The notes beneath the pieces were generated by a model. It was not told where the DNA came from, did no database searches, and was given only the letters and a program-made list of their open reading frames with translations. Shown in pieces: positions 46,069-58,319 of a DNA stretch of 64,000 nt. Position numbers and translations under genes: made by a program. The stretch comes from Planctomycetota bacterium (GTDB taxonomy: Bacteria > Planctomycetota > Planctomycetia > Planctomycetales > Planctomycetaceae), in the NCBI GenBank assembly GCA_041161565.1, contig JBEAUF010000156.1, positions 9,916-73,915 on the forward strand. The letters run 5' to 3'. How positions within the stretch are numbered: position 1 is the stretch's first letter; the number at the start of each line of letters is the position of its first letter.

Positions 46069-47346
46069 TCACAGGTCAGTCCGCTGCAGGCCAGGCTCGT
46101 CAACTCGTCCAATTACCAGCGACACATTGTGACCACCGAAACCAAAGCTGTTGTTCACAGCATAACGGCAGGCTTTCTGCAAGGCGGCATTCGGAATGTA
46201 GTTGAGGTCACATTCAGGATCCGGAGTGTCGTAGTTGATTGTCGGAGGCAATATCCCGGAGGCCAGCGCGAGGGCACAGGCCGACATCTCAATCGCACAC
46301 GCAGCACCAATCATATGCCCAAGCATGCTCTTAATTGAACTCACCCGCAAATCCGCCGCCCGGGATCCGAACACCGACTTCAACGCCACTGTCTCCATTG
46401 CGTCGTTGTAATGGGTACTGGTCCCGTGAGCACTCACGTAGGTATCTCCCGCAATCTCATCCGGATTCAGCCCCGCCTTCTGCAACGCCTGCTGAATCGC
46501 ACGAACGGCCTGCTGCCCCTGCGGGTCGGGTTGCGTGAGGTGGAAAGAATCACTGGTGGAGCGCCCCGAGAGGACTTCGGCCCACGCTCGGCCACCACGC
46601 CGCCGCAAATGCTCCTCCGTCTCGAAGATCAAAATCGACGCCCCCTCGCTCATAATGAAGCCGCCACGGTCCGCATCAAATGGACGCATGGATTTCTTCG
46701 GCCTGTCATTGCAGGACTTGTTCATCGCCCGCATGTTGACAAATGACGAAATACCCAGACGCGTCAGGGACGCCTCTGTTCCGCCGGTGATCACAAAATC
46801 AGCATCGCCCCGACGAAGATACTCAAACGCGTCAATCATCGCATGCCCCGACGAAGAACACGCACTGCTCGTCGTGTACGCCGTACCGCGAATCCCGAAC
46901 GCCAGACTCACGTTTCCCGGAGGTGCATTTGGCATCAGCATCGGGATCGTAAACGGACTCACCCGAGAAGGGCCACGCGTCAGCAGCTTTTCATGCTGGG
47001 CTTCGTAGGTTTCCAGCCCCGCCAGACCAGCCCCCAGGATCACAGCAGCGTTGTCCCCGATATCACTGATCGGCAGCCCCGCGTCTTCCAGAGCCTCAAA
47101 CGTGGCATGCACCGCAAACTGAGAAGCACGGTCCATCTTCCTCGCCGAAACCCTGTCGTTCACGTTCACGCGTGATTCGTCCAGTTCCAGCACCTCACCA
47201 CCGATGTTCACCTCCATGTCGCGCGTGTCATGCACCTTCAGTGTGTCGATTCCGCACTGTCCTGAAATCAGGTTTTTCCAGAGTGTGCGGCGGTCATTTC
47301 CCAGACAGCTGACAGCGCCAATTCCAGTGATGAAGATCCGATTCAT
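46069..47346 (-). CDS. fabF: beta-ketoacyl-ACP synthase II
   Basis: The ATG at 47346 gives MNRIFITGIGAVSCLG. The Cys-His-His triad contexts are TSSACSSSGHA, SAHGTSTHYND and LGHMIGAACA. The track extension to 47634 overlaps the upstream gene. Confidence 0.92.
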   Translation of the reverse strand: MNRIFITGIGAVSCLGNDRRTLWKNLISGQCGIDTLKVHDTRDMEVNIGGEVLELDESRVNVNDRVSARKMDRASQFAVHATFEALEDAGLPISDIGDNAAVILGAGLAGLETYEAQHEKLLTRGPSRVSPFTIPMLMPNAPPGNVSLAFGIRGTAYTTSSACSSSGHAMIDAFEYLRRGDADFVITGGTEASLTRLGISSFVNMRAMNKSCNDRPKKSMRPFDADRGGFIMSEGASILIFETEEHLRRRGGRAWAEVLSGRSTSDSFHLTQPDPQGQQAVRAIQQALQKAGLNPDEIAGDTYVSAHGTSTHYNDAMETVALKSVFGSRAADLRVSSIKSMLGHMIGAACAIEMSACALALASGILPPTINYDTPDPECDLNYIPNAALQKACRYAVNNSFGFGGHNVSLVIGRVDEPGLQRTDL

Positions 47347-47491
47347 TCGAGCGGCCTGAATCCATGGGTAACGTTCGGGCCGAAATGTCCTGCGTCCAGC
47401 CCGCTGAAAACTCTGCGTAGTACAGCAAACTCCACAATCCCTGCAACCCTGCCGCACGGGATTCCAGGGGAAATGGGAAGACCTGCAGTAC

Positions 47492-50400
47492 TTATCGCCG
47501 AACCTCACGCATGCGAACCCGCGCACCACGCGGATAGTACTCCAGCAACTGCTCGTGCAGTACCCGCTCGCGCTCACGCCAGTCCGGAATTGACCAGTCA
47601 CGCACCGGATCACGCACAAACCACGGCGTCCCATCCGGATTCAAATACAGCTTCCTCTGCTCCGCCAGAGACAATGGCCCCGCCCCCACTCGACCAAAGA
47701 CCGCCAGCTGATTCCCCGCTTCGTCCACCGCCCGATCCCGGTCCACTCCCTCTGAAATGAAAAGTGCTTCTCCGCCCTTCGGAAACTTCCAGCTGGCAAT
47801 CAGCATCGGCTGCATCCGCGGACTGAAACCCGAATAGCCGGGCGTCTGAGGAGATGTGAGCTGCACCACATGTACGCCATTCCGTCCATCAGCCAGATAC
47901 GCAAACTGGCTGGTGTAGGTAATCCCGAGCTTCACATCCCGCAAATCACAGATCCTCCCCCCCGCGTTGTAAATCTGATCGACCCGCGGCGACTCCGGAT
48001 TCGAAACATCGACGATCACCAACCCCTCGCTGCCTCCTGAAATAAACGCCCACGTACGCGCCACATAGATGTTTCTCGCTTCTTCCAGAGGCATCATGGC
48101 AGCAAGCCGGGGAACTGTCGGATCGGTAACATCAAGCACCTTCAGACCATCTTCATCAACCACAAATCCGTATCGAAACTGAAACTCAACAGCACGCGGA
48201 TTTCTCACCACATCAGCACCAAGAATGCTGGCGATCACTGGTTTCTCCGGGTCCTCAATATCCACAACCACCAGACCCGCATGGCAGCAAATCCACGCGT
48301 AATGCCCGAAAATCGTGATCGATGTGGCTCCGTGAAGCACATTCCCCGGGTTGAAAACCACATCCTTTTTCAGGAAGTTGTTCAGCGGATCTCCATCAAG
48401 CAGCGTGCCGGCTCCAATCATCACCAGCCCCTCCTCGAAGTCCGTCGCATACAAATAACCATACATCTTTGCCACCGGCCGCTCGAAATTCTCCGGGCGA
48501 TGCGTCCGAGTCGGATCCGGAGCGATCGTGGTGGGAGAGGCAATATCCGTGGCGAATGGAGTCTTCACGTGAAAACGCTGCCCCGCCGGTGATACCGGAG
48601 CCGTCACAATCCTCTCCGAAAACCCCTTGTGCTCGATGAAAGCCACATCATACACGCGAATACCGCCATCACCGCACGCCGCGTAACAATACTCCCCGCG
48701 AACCTGCAGGCTCAACACCTGGTGCGGACGCCCCGGATTCAACAACTGACGACCGATGTCATGCCCCGGATGCTCATGCGCATGATGCAACTCTCGCCCA
48801 TGCTTCACATGCTCCTCATACCGCTGCGGATAGACGTCGTGGTGCATCGTGCTGCCAATCACAGTCTGCGGTTCATCCCGCTCAGTGACCGTCACAGCAA
48901 ATAATCCATGCTCACCCGCTGCAACCCATGCGTTGCGGCCGATAAAGTTCATGTAATTGGTCCCCTGCATCAGCAGTTGAGCGATCAGCGCGTTGTTGTC
49001 ATTCTCAGCTGACAAGTGACAGTCCGTGCAGGTCTTCGTCTCTCCCTTCCCACGCACCGTATGCGGCACATTCGTGCTGAAAGCGACACCGCTCAACCCC
49101 TCAGCCGATATCGTCTGCTGCTGGGTGTAGATCGTTTCCCGATTGAGATTGTACGACGTGACGTGAATGGCACAGGATGAACGCGAAGGCCCGATGCGGT
49201 TGCCCGTCACGTTCCCATCTCGCGCCAGCATGAAGACTTCATCGCGCAGCGTCTGAAAGTTATACGCCACGTGGTTGCGACTGATGTCACCTTCATTATG
49301 CAGAGACGGCGTTTTGCGCGCGGCCTTCTGCGGCAGGTGACATCCATAACAACTGGGATTCCACGATGTATGACAGGCGATGCAGGACATACCGCGATTC
49401 GAATGTGCAAAAGTCTCCGCATGCGGATCACCCCAATCGAAACCTCCAGTCTCTGAACGGCGGACTGTTTTTGCAAGCGCTGACGCAGCGTTGTAATCGG
49501 GATGCTCCGGATTCACCGTATCGGCAACCTGTGTGAGTTCCCAGCTCAGTGTCGGATCAACCATAGAGTTCTGAATGATACGCGGACCAATCCTCTCAAA
49601 CCGTCGCTTCCCAAACGGCGTCCGCATATCCGCCAGCTGACGTCCAATCGGATTGCCTTCGGCGTCCTCAGCAGCTGCCGGACCTGATGTGATCAACACC
49701 CTGCCAGCGTCCTTCGCATCCAAAGATCCATGGCAGTCAATGCACTGAATCTCGATCGCCGCCCGCACCTCACCATACAGCTTACCATTCCCATGCACAT
49801 CCTGTACAAAATGACAGTCAACACAATGCATCCCGCGCTCAAGATGAATATCAAGCATATGCACAGGTACATTGTCTTTTTCCGCCAGCAACCGCGCCTC
49901 CAGGTCCCGCACCTGCTGCAGAAGCTGCTCTTCAGGCTGCGTCCAGTCCACCTCCCGCTGCAACTGCTGAGCAATCTCAGGGATCCGCATCGCCTTCTGA
50001 CGCTGCTCGGAAGACGGCTGCGGAATAGGCTTGCCTGCATAGTCCACGGCAATACCCTGACGGTCCTTCCTGAACACAGCCTGAAACATCCAGCCGTGAC
50101 CATGAAAATCCGCAAACTGCGTGTGCTCCAACTGAGGATTCAACTCCGATGATCGCGCAAGAAACTCAGGATCGCTCCAGTTCCCCCGCGCCGTGGCTTC
50201 GTGTGGATCCGACATCGTCGCCTCCACAAACTCCTCCGAACTCGGATGCCGCTCTTCCCGTGGATACATCAGCCGCGCATCCGTCTCCATGTCCCACCAC
50301 ATGAAACCGAGGTAACTGTTCATCACAGTCGTTCCCGGATGAATGTGACAAACAATGCACTGACTCGTCGGTATCCCAACCGTAAACCGATGCGTCACTG

Positions 50401-51652
50401 GATGCCCCGGCTCAGTCTTCGGTATCGTGGGATCAGGAGGTCCCGCAAGGTCGTCTTCCGCCGCAGCTGCCAGCCCCCGATTGCCAAATCGCGCCCATGG
50501 ACCGGAATTGACCGGTGAGCGATCGTTGGCGTAAACCATATGGCACGCCGTACAGCCACTCGATCGATAATCCCCCGGATGGTCATTCGTTCCCAGAAAA
50601 TTAAGCGTCGGGTCCAGCAGACGCGTCTTCTGCAGACCAATAAATACCGGATCAGTTCGATTCGCTGTGCCCAGACCGCGATTACTTAGCCGCGTGCGTG
50701 GCCTGCCTGACTCCTCAAGCCTCTCCGGAATGCCCACGTCAGGAACAAACCTCCCTCCACGCTCAAAAATTCGCAGAATATTTCCCGGTTGCGTTACCTC
50801 GAACCTCGGCAGAGGATCCAGATATGGCAGAACGCCCTTCCGCGCGGTTTCTTCCGGAGTGGGCGTCGGAACAGTCTGCAGCCGCTGCGGAACGCCATGC
50901 ATGCTGTAGCTCTCGCCATAGGTCGGCCACTTCCCCGGTACCGCGCCATTGTTGTAAAGAGCTGCTCCCCAGAGCATGCAGCCGTGAGTCATCATGCTCT
51001 TCTTCACCTGCAATGTCTCAGTGCCATGACACCCCGCGGTTCCACAACTGATATGCGCAACTCGCAGATCCCCCGGGTTCACAAATCGAATAAACGCCGG
51101 ATCTTCATGATTCAGCACAGTGTAAGATCGAACAGGATTCGCCGACGATCTGAACACGTCACCAAAACGAGGCTGCACGTGGGCCGCCTGCTTATCGGCT
51201 GCCAGCGGATTGCCGCCGTGGCAATCGACGCACCCCAGCTTCACGCTGACGCTCATATGCGGGTCATGCGCGTTCAAATGGCAGCGAATACACCCCGCAC
51301 TCTTCGCATCAGCCTGCTCCTGCGACTGCCGTGATAAATCCGGACCTGCCTGCTCCGACAGTGCCCCCAAAGTCTCACCGCCCGCGGTATGATCAACGAT
51401 CGCCCCGCCTGCCTCATCCACCCGAGAACGCAGCCGAAACCGTGTCGCAGGGCGGATTCCCGGGGCAGTTCGCGCATCGGAATCCTCCGCGTCGACATCG
51501 TCCAGAGACGCTCTGCCAACAGTCCGCAACTTGTCGTCACTCGCCAACAGGTGGCGATCCGACTGGCGGACATGCTGCAGCCAGAGCAGACAGCCGAGCC
51601 ACAGTGCGATCCAGGCCGCAAAAGCAGCAAGCGCGCGTACGGTGCGGTTCAT
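47492..51652 (-). CDS. multihaem c-type cytochrome fused to an LVIVD-repeat beta-propeller
   Basis: 1386 aa with an N-terminal TM/signal anchor. There are nine CxxCH sites (CIRCH, CVDCH, CTACH, CIVCH, CVDCH, CIDCH, CIACH, CYGCH, CTDCH) plus one CGTAGCH. The C-terminal third carries LVIVD-type repeats (GLVVVDIEDPEKP, GLKVLDVTDPTVP, GLVIVDVSNPESP). Confidence 0.9.
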   Translation of the reverse strand: MNRTVRALAAFAAWIALWLGCLLWLQHVRQSDRHLLASDDKLRTVGRASLDDVDAEDSDARTAPGIRPATRFRLRSRVDEAGGAIVDHTAGGETLGALSEQAGPDLSRQSQEQADAKSAGCIRCHLNAHDPHMSVSVKLGCVDCHGGNPLAADKQAAHVQPRFGDVFRSSANPVRSYTVLNHEDPAFIRFVNPGDLRVAHISCGTAGCHGTETLQVKKSMMTHGCMLWGAALYNNGAVPGKWPTYGESYSMHGVPQRLQTVPTPTPEETARKGVLPYLDPLPRFEVTQPGNILRIFERGGRFVPDVGIPERLEESGRPRTRLSNRGLGTANRTDPVFIGLQKTRLLDPTLNFLGTNDHPGDYRSSGCTACHMVYANDRSPVNSGPWARFGNRGLAAAAEDDLAGPPDPTIPKTEPGHPVTHRFTVGIPTSQCIVCHIHPGTTVMNSYLGFMWWDMETDARLMYPREERHPSSEEFVEATMSDPHEATARGNWSDPEFLARSSELNPQLEHTQFADFHGHGWMFQAVFRKDRQGIAVDYAGKPIPQPSSEQRQKAMRIPEIAQQLQREVDWTQPEEQLLQQVRDLEARLLAEKDNVPVHMLDIHLERGMHCVDCHFVQDVHGNGKLYGEVRAAIEIQCIDCHGSLDAKDAGRVLITSGPAAAEDAEGNPIGRQLADMRTPFGKRRFERIGPRIIQNSMVDPTLSWELTQVADTVNPEHPDYNAASALAKTVRRSETGGFDWGDPHAETFAHSNRGMSCIACHTSWNPSCYGCHLPQKAARKTPSLHNEGDISRNHVAYNFQTLRDEVFMLARDGNVTGNRIGPSRSSCAIHVTSYNLNRETIYTQQQTISAEGLSGVAFSTNVPHTVRGKGETKTCTDCHLSAENDNNALIAQLLMQGTNYMNFIGRNAWVAAGEHGLFAVTVTERDEPQTVIGSTMHHDVYPQRYEEHVKHGRELHHAHEHPGHDIGRQLLNPGRPHQVLSLQVRGEYCYAACGDGGIRVYDVAFIEHKGFSERIVTAPVSPAGQRFHVKTPFATDIASPTTIAPDPTRTHRPENFERPVAKMYGYLYATDFEEGLVMIGAGTLLDGDPLNNFLKKDVVFNPGNVLHGATSITIFGHYAWICCHAGLVVVDIEDPEKPVIASILGADVVRNPRAVEFQFRYGFVVDEDGLKVLDVTDPTVPRLAAMMPLEEARNIYVARTWAFISGGSEGLVIVDVSNPESPRVDQIYNAGGRICDLRDVKLGITYTSQFAYLADGRNGVHVVQLTSPQTPGYSGFSPRMQPMLIASWKFPKGGEALFISEGVDRDRAVDEAGNQLAVFGRVGAGPLSLAEQRKLYLNPDGTPWFVRDPVRDWSIPDWRERERVLHEQLLEYYPRGARVRMREVRR

Positions 51653-51715
51653 CTGCCAAATCCAAAGTGTGGAATTTTAATACTGAAATTGAGAATCGAT
51701 ATCCGGATGCGTCAA

Positions 51716-53794
51716 TTAATAAGTCAGCACGAGATCCATGAACATGCCATATAAAGTTTCCGCCTTGCCAGAACTTCCTGACACCGCCGCAATCGGATCA
51801 AGCACTCCGTAAAGATCATCAAACCCCGCTCCAGGAATCAATGATGACAGGCCGCCCGCCACAATAATGTTATCACTTAGCCGTGGGCGGTACTCCAGAC
51901 CAAGACTCAGATCCGTTCCGATACTTCGTGCGATCTGATCCTGAAAAGTAAAACGCTCCAGTACCTCTGTCTGGTCAAACCACAGAAAGTTCACGTTGCT
52001 GATCGCTCTGAGCTTCGGTGTGATCTCAAAGTCCATCCCCGCATTCAGCAAACGCACTCCCGGATTCACAAAATTGCTCTGTCCCTGAAACTTGCTGCTT
52101 CGCAGATTTGCCAGCAAACTCTCCCGCTGCGTCAGGTTCACCCCAAACAGCTTAATCTGCTGCCGCTGCCAGAAACTGAACTGCCCACCGGCAAAGTTGG
52201 GATTGTCCAGCACCGCATCAAATCCCTCCGCCTCTCCATCGTTCGGATCATCGTCCCCGGAGGCCCAGAAACCGGATGTGCGAAAGCGAATCCAGTCCCG
52301 ATCAATCGACAATTCAATAGCCGCCATATTCGCCCGGATATCAGCCCTTTGGCCCTCAATCGGATTCAGACTGTCTCGCCCGGTCACGTGATAAAATGCG
52401 TGGCTGATATTGACTCGACCAATATGCCCATCACCCGCGAAGCCAAAATAATACGCATCCACTTCATGCGGCCGGAATACCCCGGATGGATCAGGCCTGA
52501 CAAGGAATTCATTGCGGTCAAACTCAATGCTGGGCTGATCATTGTTATAGTGAAAACTAAGCTGTGCTGTGTATCCGGGAAACACAAAGTCCTGCCGGAA
52601 ATAATTCAGGATCAGAGTGTTCTGATGCCGGTCGTCAAATGTGTTCAGCAGACTAGTCGTCTCCTTTTCAGTCTGATCGAACCAGATCACATTAAACTGG
52701 TCCCGATTGGCAAGTCGAGTGCCAAAAATCCTCACCGCTCGGTTCGTGTCAGCAAAGACAAAACCTCGAAAGTCACTGACAAACGGCTGCGATCCTGCGC
52801 GCACAGACACAAAATCGTAGTCCGGACTCAGGTCCGCAAGCTTCGCCTCAACAAACCATTCCTCCAGTGCTGCGTCCTGACGATGGCGCGATGCCCCCCT
52901 CCGCACATCAGGATTCACAACCGCAAGCTCGTTCACATCCAGATAATTCAGGTTCAAAACCGGGGCTGCACGCAACTGCCAGTCAAAGGGTTTGAAGCCT
53001 GCGTCGCCATGCGAAAGATTGAACTGCAGTTTCAGGTTGTTCACGAAGAAATATTGGTCAGGATCACCGTAAAACTCCCGCTGGCCGGCTCCCACCGTAC
53101 TTTCAAACGGGGAGGTCGGAATCGGAGTCTGTCGAAATTCGTGCAGCATGAAATTCGTCGCCGTAATATTCAAAAACGTATGCTGACCGATGATCGGATA
53201 GTCTCCCTTCAGCACATTTTGATTGTACGGATCCCACCAATGTCCTTTCTCGTAGGGCTGGTCCACCCCCTGCGGATTTGGATCCGAGTATCGCTGCCAG
53301 TCCGGAAAGCCAGCCCTCCAACGATCTTCAATTGGAACAAAATCGAGGCTTTGCTGGGCCTCGCTCGGCCGAATACCAGAAGCCCCCGTGTACCCCAGCG
53401 GCGTGCGAATCAGCGGACGGACAAACTCCGGAGCAGACGGCGCCGGCTGAAATTCCTCCGCGACTCCCTGTGACGGCACCGCAGGCTGAAGGACATCCGG
53501 ACGCGCCTCACCACCAGCGCCCTCCTGTGAACCCACAGGCCCTGCAAACTGGTCTGCAGCCGCCCCGCCAGCCGCCACCTGAAACTGCGGAACCAGTCCG
53601 TCAGCGAATGGCGGTGTACCTGGAGCCTCACCCGCATCCTGCAAAAAGCCGCAGGCCGTCGGCGGAAACACAGACGCAAGGCAAAGCATCATCGCTGCGC
53701 ACACAGGAAACCGCGGTGACGGGAGACACCCCGCCAACTTCCTCGCGGCGGAAATCCGCCGGAACTTCACCGGTTCCGCGATATATCCGTGCAT
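51716..53794 (-). CDS. putative outer-membrane beta-barrel protein (hypothetical)
   Basis: The track ORF runs to GTG 53911. I prefer ATG 53794, which has GGAAG upstream and gives a basic N-region followed by the hydrophobic FPVCAAMMLCLASVF. The body is rich in alternating aromatic/polar stretches and Gly/Asn/Asp turns. The C-terminus ends DLVLTY. It lies 63 nt upstream of the cytochrome gene. Confidence 0.7.
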   Translation of the reverse strand: MHGYIAEPVKFRRISAARKLAGCLPSPRFPVCAAMMLCLASVFPPTACGFLQDAGEAPGTPPFADGLVPQFQVAAGGAAADQFAGPVGSQEGAGGEARPDVLQPAVPSQGVAEEFQPAPSAPEFVRPLIRTPLGYTGASGIRPSEAQQSLDFVPIEDRWRAGFPDWQRYSDPNPQGVDQPYEKGHWWDPYNQNVLKGDYPIIGQHTFLNITATNFMLHEFRQTPIPTSPFESTVGAGQREFYGDPDQYFFVNNLKLQFNLSHGDAGFKPFDWQLRAAPVLNLNYLDVNELAVVNPDVRRGASRHRQDAALEEWFVEAKLADLSPDYDFVSVRAGSQPFVSDFRGFVFADTNRAVRIFGTRLANRDQFNVIWFDQTEKETTSLLNTFDDRHQNTLILNYFRQDFVFPGYTAQLSFHYNNDQPSIEFDRNEFLVRPDPSGVFRPHEVDAYYFGFAGDGHIGRVNISHAFYHVTGRDSLNPIEGQRADIRANMAAIELSIDRDWIRFRTSGFWASGDDDPNDGEAEGFDAVLDNPNFAGGQFSFWQRQQIKLFGVNLTQRESLLANLRSSKFQGQSNFVNPGVRLLNAGMDFEITPKLRAISNVNFLWFDQTEVLERFTFQDQIARSIGTDLSLGLEYRPRLSDNIIVAGGLSSLIPGAGFDDLYGVLDPIAAVSGSSGKAETLYGMFMDLVLTY

Positions 53795-54017
53795 TACAGC
53801 TTCCGAACGCGCCATCAGCCGACCCATCAGCCCCACAGATTCCTGCAAGGCTGAAAGCCGGACCCTAAGGCACCATAGACAACCGCCGCAAGCAGAAGTC
53901 AGGGATCGCACGGATGTCCGTTACAGAAATCCTCGCCTGTGAAGGACAGATCTGCAGGAATGGGGGATTCGCCGCGCCGATTGTGGCAGGACCTGCCGCT
54001 TTCGTGAGCACTCCGGT

Positions 54018-56822: not shown

Positions 56823-58319
56823 ATGGGCGTAGAGACAAACGGGCCTGAAACCGACCTCAGCAATCGAAGCATCGGAGAATTCCAGCTCCTGCGACGACTT
56901 GGCAGTGGAGGCATGGCTGATGTCTACCTCGCCGAACAGCATTCTCTCGCGCGACACGTGGCCGTCAAGATCCTCAAGACTGACTCCCTCCAGTCCAATG
57001 GTGAGGTACTCCTGAAGCGATTCGACCAGGAGGCCCGTGCAGCAGGCGGCCTGAGTCATCCCAACGTCGTCCAGATCATCACAACCGGACGCGACGGTGA
57101 CCTTGCATGGATTGTTCAGGAATACGTGCCAGGTCTCAATCTGAGCCAATGGATACGACGACACGGACCACCGGACTACGCCACCGGACTACGCTGGCTC
57201 CAGCAGGTTGCTGCAGCACTCCGGGCAGCGGCCGAAGCGGGAATCGTACATCGGGACGTTAAGCCGGAAAATATCCTGCTCACCCGTAATGGAATCGCCA
57301 AAGTCACCGACTTCGGCCTGGCTCAGCTCAACCAACCCCGGCAGCCAAGAATGAATCTTACGCAGGCCGGCACTACCATGGGAACCCCCTGGTACATGAG
57401 CCCGGAACAGATCGAAGGTCGCCCACTTGACCATCGGTCCGACCAGTACTCTCTCGGAATCACCGCGTGGCACATGTTCGCCGGACGGCCGCCGTTTCCC
57501 GGCAAAAACCCGATGACGGTTGCAGTACAACATCTCAGGGAAATTCCCCCGCCGCTCGCACGGTTTCGTGCAGATCTTCCCGCCGCGCTCTGCAGGGTGA
57601 TCGAACGCATGCTGCAGAAAAAGCCGGAGGATCGCTACCCGGACATGGAAGCCCTCGAACGGGCACTGCTCGAACTCAATCACGTTTCCGTCAACGATTC
57701 CCTGCAGGCACATGATGGCTGGCGAGGATTGCTAAGGAGGTCCCGCGCGATTCTGACCACAGCCGGTGCAGTCCTCGCTGTCTCCTTCCTCAGCGGCCAC
57801 TTCACCGCCCGTTTGGTCAATCCTCCGATCCAACTGCCCCCGCCACGGCAGAATGCAGAGGTGGCCGGAGAAAGCTCCGCAGCACGTCAGTACGCGCGAG
57901 CCATGCTGCAGCCGGATCGGCTCGACCTCTGGCGCGCTGTTGTGCATGAATTCCCCGATACATTTGAAGCTGACATGGCGTCCATGCAGCTGGGAATTGC
58001 ACTGATGTCGGGGCCCGTCCCGGATCCTGAGCAGGCCCAAAAAGCATTCAAAGCCGTGCGGGAACGGGGCGAACTCGCCATCGAAAAACGCCATCTCCAG
58101 CTCCTCGGAATGATCGGCGAGGCCTGGGTTCTGAAAGATCGCCTAAGAACAGCCGAACTGGATCTGCTGCTGTCTGAAATCTACAGCCGCATAGATGAGT
58201 ATGATTCCGAGGATATTCTGCAGCTGGATATCGATCAGGCCCCAGGAGAGTTGCAGCAGTTCTTTTCACGCATCCTGCAGACACGCAGACAACAGGATGC
58301 ATCCACAAATGCAGGCTGA
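56823..58319 (+). CDS. serine/threonine protein kinase with TM segment and C-terminal helical domain
   Basis: The Hanks motifs are GSGGMADVY, VAVKIL, HRDVKPENILL, DFGLA and YMSPEQ. A TM segment lies near AILTTAGAVLAVSFLSGHF. GGAG lies 7 nt upstream of the ATG. Confidence 0.92.
   Translation: MGVETNGPETDLSNRSIGEFQLLRRLGSGGMADVYLAEQHSLARHVAVKILKTDSLQSNGEVLLKRFDQEARAAGGLSHPNVVQIITTGRDGDLAWIVQEYVPGLNLSQWIRRHGPPDYATGLRWLQQVAAALRAAAEAGIVHRDVKPENILLTRNGIAKVTDFGLAQLNQPRQPRMNLTQAGTTMGTPWYMSPEQIEGRPLDHRSDQYSLGITAWHMFAGRPPFPGKNPMTVAVQHLREIPPPLARFRADLPAALCRVIERMLQKKPEDRYPDMEALERALLELNHVSVNDSLQAHDGWRGLLRRSRAILTTAGAVLAVSFLSGHFTARLVNPPIQLPPPRQNAEVAGESSAARQYARAMLQPDRLDLWRAVVHEFPDTFEADMASMQLGIALMSGPVPDPEQAQKAFKAVRERGELAIEKRHLQLLGMIGEAWVLKDRLRTAELDLLLSEIYSRIDEYDSEDILQLDIDQAPGELQQFFSRILQTRRQQDASTNAG

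Follow-up and report, generated by a model that had tools for sequence, protein, structure and literature searches.

A conserved gene pair for a beta-barrel protein and a ten-haem, propeller-bearing cytochrome as the probable core of an envelope electron-transfer system in Planctomycetota and Gammaproteobacteria

To our knowledge, the trans-outer-membrane electron conduits that have been characterised follow only a few designs, namely the MtrAB-like complexes, the Pcc and Ext systems of Geobacter, and the fused porin-cytochrome Cyc2. These conduits come mostly from metal-respiring or iron-oxidising specialists. Here, we report a computational analysis of two adjacent genes in a 64,000-nucleotide stretch of contig JBEAUF010000156.1 (positions 9,916 to 73,915; hereafter, the window) from a planctomycete of the family Planctomycetaceae, one of which is predicted to specify a beta-barrel of the outer membrane and the other of which encodes a large ten-haem cytochrome that ends in a beta-propeller of LVIVD repeats. 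On balance, we consider it probable that the two genes are the conserved core of a widespread, uncharacterised, multi-component envelope electron-transfer system, in which the barrel provides docking or access and does not form an Mtr-like sheath around the haems.

The barrel gene (51716..53794, minus strand) is present once in this genome. It encodes 692 amino acids (aa) from a start, M40 of the long frame, that was set by alignment with 24 homologues; the open frame itself runs upstream to a GTG at 53911, giving an open reading frame (ORF) of 731 aa (51716-53911, minus strand). Its TAA stop codon (51716-51718) is separated by a spacer of 63 nucleotides (nt; 51653..51715, same strand) from the ATG (51652-51650) of the cytochrome gene (47492..51652, minus strand), and a scan of this spacer found neither a terminator-like hairpin nor a sigma-70-like promoter site. 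The cytochrome is 1386 aa long by translation, and its start agrees with that of the homologue P0127 (89% identity, likewise 1386 aa). An earlier, sequence-only reading of this DNA had placed a protein of about 690-730 aa 63 nt ahead of the 1386-aa cytochrome on the same strand, with a signal-like N-terminus, a C-terminal ...DLVLTY and no N-terminal CxxC; the coordinates and all of these sequence features hold, the real start giving 692 aa.

The two genes are linked far more tightly than chance would allow. With more than 3200 matches in a database clustered at 90% and 1707 clusters at 50% identity, the family of the barrel is a large one, and it occurs in at least 588 GTDB species genomes, mostly labelled Planctomycetota. 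When the best 80 loci of these at least 588 species genomes were sampled for synteny, 63 had room downstream, and in 60 of the 63 the cytochrome gene directly follows the barrel gene on the same strand. The pair is adjacent in six of six proteobacterial loci examined, so that the conservation of synteny across Planctomycetota and another phylum, which the sequence-only reading had named as a check on its proposal, is observed. Three divergent barrel copies (34-36% identity) likewise lie beside a cytochrome. Of 121 evenly sampled genomes of the window's own family, 37 have the cytochrome, 36 the barrel and likewise 36 a tandem HbpS-like protein, and the same 36 have all three; barrel and cytochrome occur together in 36 genomes, are both missing from 84, and part company in a single genome that has the cytochrome only, none having the barrel only (Fisher p = 5e-30). 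That one genome is 78% complete, and its cytochrome gene stands at a contig end. The HbpS-like protein shows a pattern of presence and absence identical to that of the barrel, and a second, smaller decahaem cytochrome is present in 23 of the 121 genomes, all of them among the 36 barrel carriers.

Across the phylum the distribution of the system is patchy, not universal, the barrel being found in 25 genomes of a phylum-wide sample of 201. In that sample the identities were 32-51% and none of nine family genomes was positive; misplacement of the contig was nonetheless rejected as an explanation, given that the 36 positive genomes among the 121 of the family carry the barrel at 56-88% identity.

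Second, divergent pairs exist as well in some Planctomycetota. In one locus (L094; genome G250, contig C132, 3784-9716) such a barrel and an LVIVD cytochrome are again adjacent. The second pairs of L092, L093 and L094 are 34-36% and 40-44% identical (BLASTP) to the window or Steroidobacter proteins, and those of L092 and L093 adjoin cytochromes with 15, 16 or 18 CxxCH motifs. Planctomycete-type pairs were also found in metagenome-assembled genomes (MAGs) titled 'Candidatus Kuenenia stuttgartiensis' or 'uncultured Chitinophaga sp.' (L010, L027, L053, L012), labels that look doubtful.

Structure prediction supports the assignment of the first protein as an outer-membrane-type beta-barrel. The AlphaFold2 model, built from 50 homologues, has 18 strands over residues 206-691 and leaves the N-terminal third unmodelled; the overall predicted local distance difference test score (pLDDT) is 62, a moderate confidence, with most 10-residue blocks of the barrel at about 60-89 and dips to about 40 in three loops. 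In a Foldseek search against the Protein Data Bank (PDB), AlgE accounts for all of the twelve best matches, with target TM-scores of 0.55-0.62 and E values from 2.6e-13 to 1.5e-11; next come porins of 16-18 strands, first the 16-strand general porins and then OprB and Occ channels; MtrB is absent from the top 50. The barrel-like nature that had been proposed from composition thus finds its counterpart in solved outer-membrane barrels.

At the sequence level, no Pfam or NCBIfam family matched the window barrel at E <= 0.1, nor any at E <= 10, which leaves MtrB_PioB unmatched, and the same databases gave nothing for ten distant barrel representatives and five proteobacterial homologues. The alginate export family PF13372 (Alginate_exp) in particular matched neither the window barrel nor the five proteobacterial proteins; one divergent barrel beside an LVIVD decahaem has a borderline match to it (E 5.9e-5, 22.5 bits vs a cut-off of 25.2), and the UniRef name of the Steroidobacter homologue is 'Alginate export domain-containing'. 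A sequence search of solved structures with the barrel profile returned nothing meaningful. As modelled, the barrel is a distant relative of the AlgE fold that lies outside the family by the Pfam criterion.

The regions of the barrel protein, all on the minus strand, differ sharply in conservation. The signal-like N-terminus (residues 1-49; 53648..53794) is basic and then hydrophobic, with one hydrophobic stretch at residues 29-47 and the end ...PPTACG, and is poorly conserved (0.15). It is followed by a low-complexity linker of variable length, rich in Ala, Gly, Pro, Gln and Glu (residues 50-130; 53405..53647; conservation 0.20, pLDDT <50). All cysteines of the long ORF fall within its first 87 residues, that is, in the signal-like region, and the mature part has no CxxC. 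The next 75 residues form a conserved pre-barrel segment (residues 131-205; 53180..53404; PLGYTG...EDRWR...DPYNQNVLKGDYPIIGQH; conservation 0.65), which has many invariant columns in Planctomycetota, was modelled without confidence and is presumably periplasmic; its core motif, DRWR...DPY..N.LKGD.PI.G, recurs in the consensus of the divergent set, Proteobacteria included. The 18-strand barrel itself, delimited by the AlphaFold2 secondary structure, comprises residues 206-692 (51719..53179) and ends in the aromatic C-terminus LTY. Its two long loops (residues 336-364 and 512-579, the latter of 68 residues and acidic) are more conserved (0.77 and 0.76) than the strands (0.64), a pattern in the alignment that probably reflects loops that enter the pore or are bound by a partner protein, unlike loops that lie free at the surface. 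Conservation of the barrel as a whole is also unusual for a porin, at about 60% identity across planctomycete families, loops included.

Some homologues depart from this plan at the N-terminus. In P0041, P0048, P0058 and P0124, HEAT repeats (PF13646) replace the linker; HEAT-bearing planctomycete barrels, with P0055 counted among them (HEAT by PF13646 or by NCBI name), are 860-920 aa long. Such N-termini suggest that some barrels carry a protein-binding periplasmic extension.

The second protein contains nine CxxCH motifs, at residues 121, 141, 367, 432, 610, 637, 757, 768 and 875, and a CGTAGCH at residue 203. The count of nine CxxCH plus one CxxxxCH had been made at first sight of the sequence and is correct, and all ten sites are invariant in an alignment of 17 orthologues spanning two phyla. 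The column of the CxxxxCH is occupied by an ordinary CxxCH in some planctomycete and in all aligned proteobacterial orthologues; because it aligns with CxxCH and stays invariant, we count it as a real haem site, the tenth, that carries two inserted residues. Motifs and alignment delimit a haem domain at residues ~109-960 (48773..51328, minus strand), in which the ten attachment sites are spread over about 760 residues and are accompanied by very many other invariant residues.

The haem domain is preceded by a single hydrophobic helix, a signal anchor or uncleaved signal by hydropathy (residues 4-26; 51575..51643, minus strand), and by an acidic linker that is gapped, variable and poorly conserved in the alignment (residues 27-108; 51329..51574, minus strand). 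No small-x-small cleavage site was seen after the helix when judged by eye. By the same kind of inspection, signal peptides of the ordinary, cleavable kind appear to be present in the two aligned proteobacterial orthologues and in some of those from planctomycetes, and the cytochrome is therefore taken to be exported. In this organism, its N-terminal helix and linker of about 80 residues probably act as an anchor, which may tether it to the inner membrane.

C-terminal to the haem domain lies the LVIVD-repeat beta-propeller (residues ~961-1340; 47633..48772, minus strand), which has seven or eight blades and belongs to PF08309 (LVIVD; E 3.9e-16, 58.5 bits vs a cut-off of 20.2). In the model of residues 118-1317 (1200 residues, from a 42-sequence alignment) the propeller reaches a pLDDT of about 85-95. 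The first Foldseek match of the propeller is cd1 nitrite reductase (E 3e-7), with BtuG, NirN, AztD and WD40 proteins close behind; a specific kinship to cd1 nitrite reductase was rejected, generic propellers scoring about as well. No His, Cys or Met of the propeller is invariant in the 17-orthologue alignment, which argues against a metal or haem centre and for a role in binding or docking. In the simplest reading, the propeller serves to dock the protein or to bind a substrate.

Known families touch the cytochrome only lightly elsewhere. ExtM (NF040943, a 599-position model) matches it in three short stretches with 71 bits, against a cut-off of 800, and gives 66 bits for the Steroidobacter orthologue, so that the haem domain appears to be at most remotely related to ExtM. 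The NCBIfam matches of the cytochrome do not include TIGR03508 (DmsE/MtrA), and a search by sequence among solved structures yielded nothing meaningful. In one gammaproteobacterial MAG (L090, 11836-15691), the LVIVD cytochrome is called as a 672-aa haem gene plus a 609-aa propeller gene; be this split natural or a frameshift, the haem part and the propeller are separable modules. Another orthologue, from a genome of the window's family (G261, contig C34, 21877-25728), contains a single in-frame TAG, which could be a sequencing error, the mark of a pseudogene or a site of read-through.

The sequence-only reading had treated the pair as a unit. Its co-conservation bears this out; the reading saw only two genes, however, and the unit is larger and takes in further cytochromes, namely c554-like ones and a second decahaem, together with an HbpS-like protein, a membrane protein that bears two HX13H motifs and a protein with FeS and cyclic-nucleotide (cNMP)-binding domains. 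Near the planctomycete pairs, an HbpS-like gene is found in 50 of 81 loci, usually divergent from the barrel gene, and in 22 loci two or three multihaem cytochrome genes converge on the 3' end of the cytochrome gene; beyond these, the 81 loci have no other recurrent neighbour. The distant barrel relatives belong to Gammaproteobacteria (among them Steroidobacter, Povalibacter and Pseudomonadales MAGs), where the two proteins of the pair are 42% and 45% identical to the window barrel and cytochrome, respectively. In Steroidobacter sp. S1-65 and in proteobacterial MAGs, the pair lies inside one co-directional operon that starts with a protein combining a thioredoxin-reductase-like flavin domain, a cNMP-binding domain and 4Fe-4S, followed by a 290-aa membrane protein with two HX13H motifs, which are candidate di-haem-b sites. 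The next gene of the operon encodes a decahaem cytochrome (about 580 aa) and is followed by that for a tandem HbpS-like lipoprotein; then come the barrel, the LVIVD decahaem and a c554-like cytochrome. The HbpS-like protein of Steroidobacter has a lipobox, and its gene is directly upstream of the barrel gene in the proteobacterial operons. Two operons (L084 and L088) end with genes for an FHA protein and a PP2C phosphatase. There is also a shorter form, which consists of the c554-like, HbpS-like, barrel and LVIVD cytochrome genes only.

Counterparts of these operon genes, the flavin domain excepted, are encoded on two other contigs of the genome from which the window derives, C401 and C212. 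A cluster of five genes on contig C401 (L082; 4024-13330, minus strand) encodes a 757-aa cNMP-binding/4Fe-4S protein, a 644-aa membrane protein with HX13H at residues 81 and 618, and cytochromes with 10 haems (606 aa), 4+1 haems (513 aa) and 5 haems (603 aa). Contig C212 (L083; 911-3622, plus strand) encodes a protein of 903 aa in which two HbpS-like (PF03928) domains are accompanied by an N-terminal region that is weakly matrixin-like. Recent paralogy of the two decahaems of this genome, the LVIVD cytochrome and the anchored decahaem partner, was rejected, as BLASTP matches them at the haem motifs only. Searched by sequence against solved structures, one of the two c554-like penta-haem partners gave nothing meaningful and the other a weak match to cytochrome c554 only. 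In total, the system comprises about 29 c-type haems plus FeS clusters.

Signalling genes also recur in the neighbourhood. In 12 of 80 planctomycete loci, and likewise in the window (56823-58319, plus strand), the gene for a Hanks-type kinase is no more than 9 kb away from the pair, and genes for PP2C and double-FHA proteins are present at L084 (17093-18908) and L088 (6185-7915 and 17133-18906); one decahaem has a weak FHA match. The recurrence of Ser/Thr phospho-signalling genes near the system may be due to chance in the kinase-rich Planctomycetota. Downstream of the pair, a long fabF frame (46069-47634, minus strand) shares nucleotides with the 3' end of the cytochrome gene. Within this frame, conserved KAS II sequence begins at about residue 97 (MNRIFITG..., near 47346), and the roughly 145 nt from the cytochrome stop to the KAS II start contain no terminator-like site. 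None of the related loci examined has fabF, and VWA and TPR neighbours recur only among the closest relatives.

These observations can be joined in a scheme, which is the one we favour. Electrons would exit the cytoplasm via the FeS protein and the HX13H membrane protein, here read as a di-haem-b protein, bypassing quinones, and would then be relayed by periplasmic cytochromes until they reach the LVIVD decahaem, the protein with the propeller, which would sit at the outer membrane. There, the barrel and the HbpS-like protein would hold the propeller-decahaem in what we infer to be a physical complex, and the barrel would let a small or polymeric redox substrate reach or leave the cytochrome, or would dock or anchor the complex. 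The long conserved loops of the barrel probably fold into or over the pore. By geometry, an ideal 18-strand barrel measures about 33 Å across its C-alpha atoms, as against about 47 Å for 26 strands; because the barrel would be this narrow, with loops probably in its lumen, and the cytochrome is large and has a globular propeller, it is not expected to be able to sheathe the cytochrome in the manner of MtrB. An outward direction of electron flow is proposed because the proteobacterial operon encodes an NAD(P)H-type flavin domain.

Several observations weigh against this scheme. A counterpart of the flavin domain, and with it of the ground for the outward direction, was not found in this genome. 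The linkage of the genes is the only pointer to contact between barrel and cytochrome, which must be regarded as presumptive, and the model of the haem domain is unreliable (pLDDT mostly <50), so that neither an open catalytic haem nor the shape of the haem chain can be read from it. A crude count of alternate strand residues, taken to face the lumen of the barrel, gives 12 Arg, 1 Lys, 9 Asp and 4 Glu and is uninformative as to the charge of the pore. Barrel and cytochrome are apart in 3 of the 63 informative loci and in a few well-assembled genomes, and the system is accessory, being carried by about 30% of the family and about 12% of the phylum sample. Finally, no cytochrome gene lies close to the most distant of the barrel relatives examined (28-32% identity), which means that the barrel fold itself is not tied to redox function.

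A possible but rather improbable alternative is more specific. The barrel, the propeller-decahaem and the HbpS-like protein would be the outer end of a quinone-independent, cyclic-nucleotide-gated electron exporter, a bacterial analogue of the eukaryotic NOX and FRE enzymes that reaches across two membranes, which would pass electrons from a cytoplasmic reductant via the HX13H membrane protein and some 29 c-type haems to the AlgE-like pore and by which oxygen-respiring heterotrophs would reduce extracellular or periplasmic Fe(III), Mn or humics, or would reduce oxygen to superoxide. Gating by cyclic nucleotides is proposed because the cNMP-binding domain sits in the cytoplasmic FeS subunit.

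It seems unlikely that the barrel is instead an export or import pore for cargo other than electrons, such as a polymer or a tetrapyrrole or other haem-related compound, which would work by analogy with AlgE and AlgK and whose chemistry the cytochromes would serve. The AlgE-like fold would suit such a role, as would the obligatory partner from the HbpS/GlcG family, characterised members of which bind haem (Pfam PF03928), and the tetrapyrrole-binding proteins cd1 nitrite reductase, NirN and BtuG are among the matches of the propeller, where generic propellers score about equally. Yet no genes for polysaccharide synthesis or export are conserved around the pair in the 81 planctomycete and 6 proteobacterial loci, nor are genes for tetrapyrrole synthesis conserved beside it; none of the His, Cys and Met residues of the propeller is invariant, so that a haem would find no conserved ligand there; and the haem content of the system, together with its FeS clusters and HX13H membrane protein, points to bulk electron transfer.

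Quite unlikely, in our judgement, is a true conduit of the MtrAB or Pcc type, in which a part of the ten-haem domain, or a partner such as a c554-like cytochrome, would thread the barrel, so that haems span the outer membrane and exchange electrons with minerals, humics or electrodes. Such a conduit would need room in the lumen, and the predicted barrel of about 18 strands, AlgE-like and with conserved loops that are likely to occupy its interior, offers a width of about 33 rather than 47 Å. Nor do the proteins match the MtrB_PioB, DmsE/MtrA or Geobacter Pcc families; the gene set examined shows no extracellular lipoprotein cytochrome, and the named hosts (Planctomycetaceae, Steroidobacter, Povalibacter) are generally known as mostly aerobic heterotrophs. 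What speaks for it is the logic of the locus, the order of barrel and then decahaem, the tight spacing and the strict co-inheritance all fitting mtrAB, pioAB and pcc, and the presence of further multihaem cytochromes in the system; it is also the reading that their authors proposed for the related clusters PCC4 (PMC5566968) and ptd (bioRxiv 10.1101/2023.11.21.568154).

That a general porin merely neighbours an unrelated periplasmic multihaem enzyme is highly improbable and, in view of the co-occurrence, close to refuted: the lack of a family annotation for the barrel, its most distant examined relative with no nearby cytochrome, and the unrelated flanks of the window (VWA, TPR, fabF), which are unconserved beyond close relatives, would all agree with chance, but adjacency, seen in 60 of 63 loci and kept between two phyla with identities of 35-45%, the matching presence and absence in 121 genomes, and conservation of the barrel beyond the norm for porins, at about 60% identity across planctomycete families, would not.

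Our search of the literature on LVIVD cytochromes, on alginate-export barrels with cytochromes and on HbpS with decahaems found no characterisation of such proteins, and no report in the searchable literature was found to combine a barrel of AlgE fold with a decahaem-propeller fusion and an HbpS-like protein. If the proteins form a complex, electrons would be brought to the outer membrane by an architecture that is new, and common bacteria of soil, freshwater and the sea could have a redox activity that has gone unrecognised. Some carriers are in culture, which makes direct testing feasible; they include Steroidobacter sp. S1-65, Stratiformator vulcanicus and Rubinisphaera (for the latter two, the cytochrome only is shown here).

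Several known systems invite comparison. MtrB-type barrels have 26 strands, as in the MtrCAB structure, and an N-terminal CxxC. With MtrCAB, MtoAB and PioAB (of Shewanella, Sideroxydans and Rhodopseudomonas), the system shares a barrel gene beside a ten-haem gene, the co-inheritance of the two and a chain of cytochromes from the inner membrane. Unlike MtrB, the window barrel has about 18 predicted strands, an AlgE-like fold and no CxxC; and whereas MtrA is rod-like and about 330 aa long, the window cytochrome, at 1386 aa, is four times its size and carries a globular propeller of about 350 residues. By family models, the window proteins fall outside both MtrB_PioB and DmsE/MtrA (TIGR03508), the latter a family of compact proteins of 300-350 aa. 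The Pcc (OmbB-OmaB-OmcB) and Ext systems of Geobacter likewise combine a porin-like protein with multihaem cytochromes, and ExtM is the sole curated cytochrome family that the window cytochrome touches. Unlike Pcc, the gene set yielded neither an OmaB-like octahaem nor an OmcB-like lipoprotein as a partner, and the HbpS-like protein, the HX13H membrane protein and the cNMP/FeS protein are not part of Pcc. The sequence-only reading had proposed a porin-cytochrome-type envelope redox module on the analogy of MtrB with MtrA and of Geobacter Pcc. The envelope redox module is supported by the barrel, the co-conservation and the partners; the analogy is not supported, in view of the 18 strands, the lack of a family match and the propeller.

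AlgE shares the 18-strand fold and is the best structural match of the barrel. Compared with AlgE, the window barrel has an additional conserved N-terminal segment and a conserved acidic loop of 68 residues, and its partner is a cytochrome rather than a polymerase complex, with no alginate or polysaccharide genes nearby. AlgE has AlgK as a partner, and the lipoprotein gene directly upstream of the proteobacterial barrels recalls it.

The gene set as a whole comes closest to two clusters that are themselves hypothetical and for which occurrence in both Proteobacteria and Planctomycetes was reported. One of them, PCC4 (He et al. 2017, PMC5566968), comprises a porin, cytochromes with 4, 5 and 10 haems, a membrane protein of five helices that bears two HX13H motifs, an FeS protein and an FAD/NAD(P) protein; ptdABCDEFG (bioRxiv 10.1101/2023.11.21.568154) has a like content, its FeS protein being cNMP-binding. 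Accordingly, the statement of the sequence-only reading that no conduit has been characterised in Planctomycetota is correct, with the addition that these related hypothetical clusters (PMC5566968; bioRxiv 10.1101/2023.11.21.568154) were already reported there. Of the PCC4/ptd gene set, the porin, the 4-, 5- and 10-haem cytochromes, the membrane protein with its HX13H motifs and the FeS (cNMP) protein are all represented in this genome, over three contigs, an agreement in composition only; the cluster on contig C401 resembles the PCC4/ptd inner module in composition and lacks a porin and a flavin protein. The proteobacterial operons join such an inner set, of the C401 type, to the barrel and the LVIVD cytochrome. 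A propeller-bearing second decahaem and an HbpS-like protein are unmentioned for PCC4 (PMC5566968) or ptd (bioRxiv 10.1101/2023.11.21.568154), and the gene orders differ. A porin-multihaem cytochrome cluster of Verrucomicrobia (PMC5615132) was considered and rejected as the same system, as its haems number eight and its barrel has at least 20 strands.

A further likeness, to NOX and FRE, concerns the partner genes and not the pair: the proteobacterial operons place an NAD(P)H-type flavin/FeS protein before the HX13H membrane protein, an arrangement that He et al. (PMC5566968) compared with ferric-reductase domains, with the flavin domain not found in this genome. The downstream chain of about 29 haems and the outer-membrane barrel have no counterpart in NOX or FRE. 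Among porin-plus-cytochrome envelope modules, the pair is a widespread, uncharacterised variant that is set apart from the Mtr and the Geobacter Pcc/Ext types.

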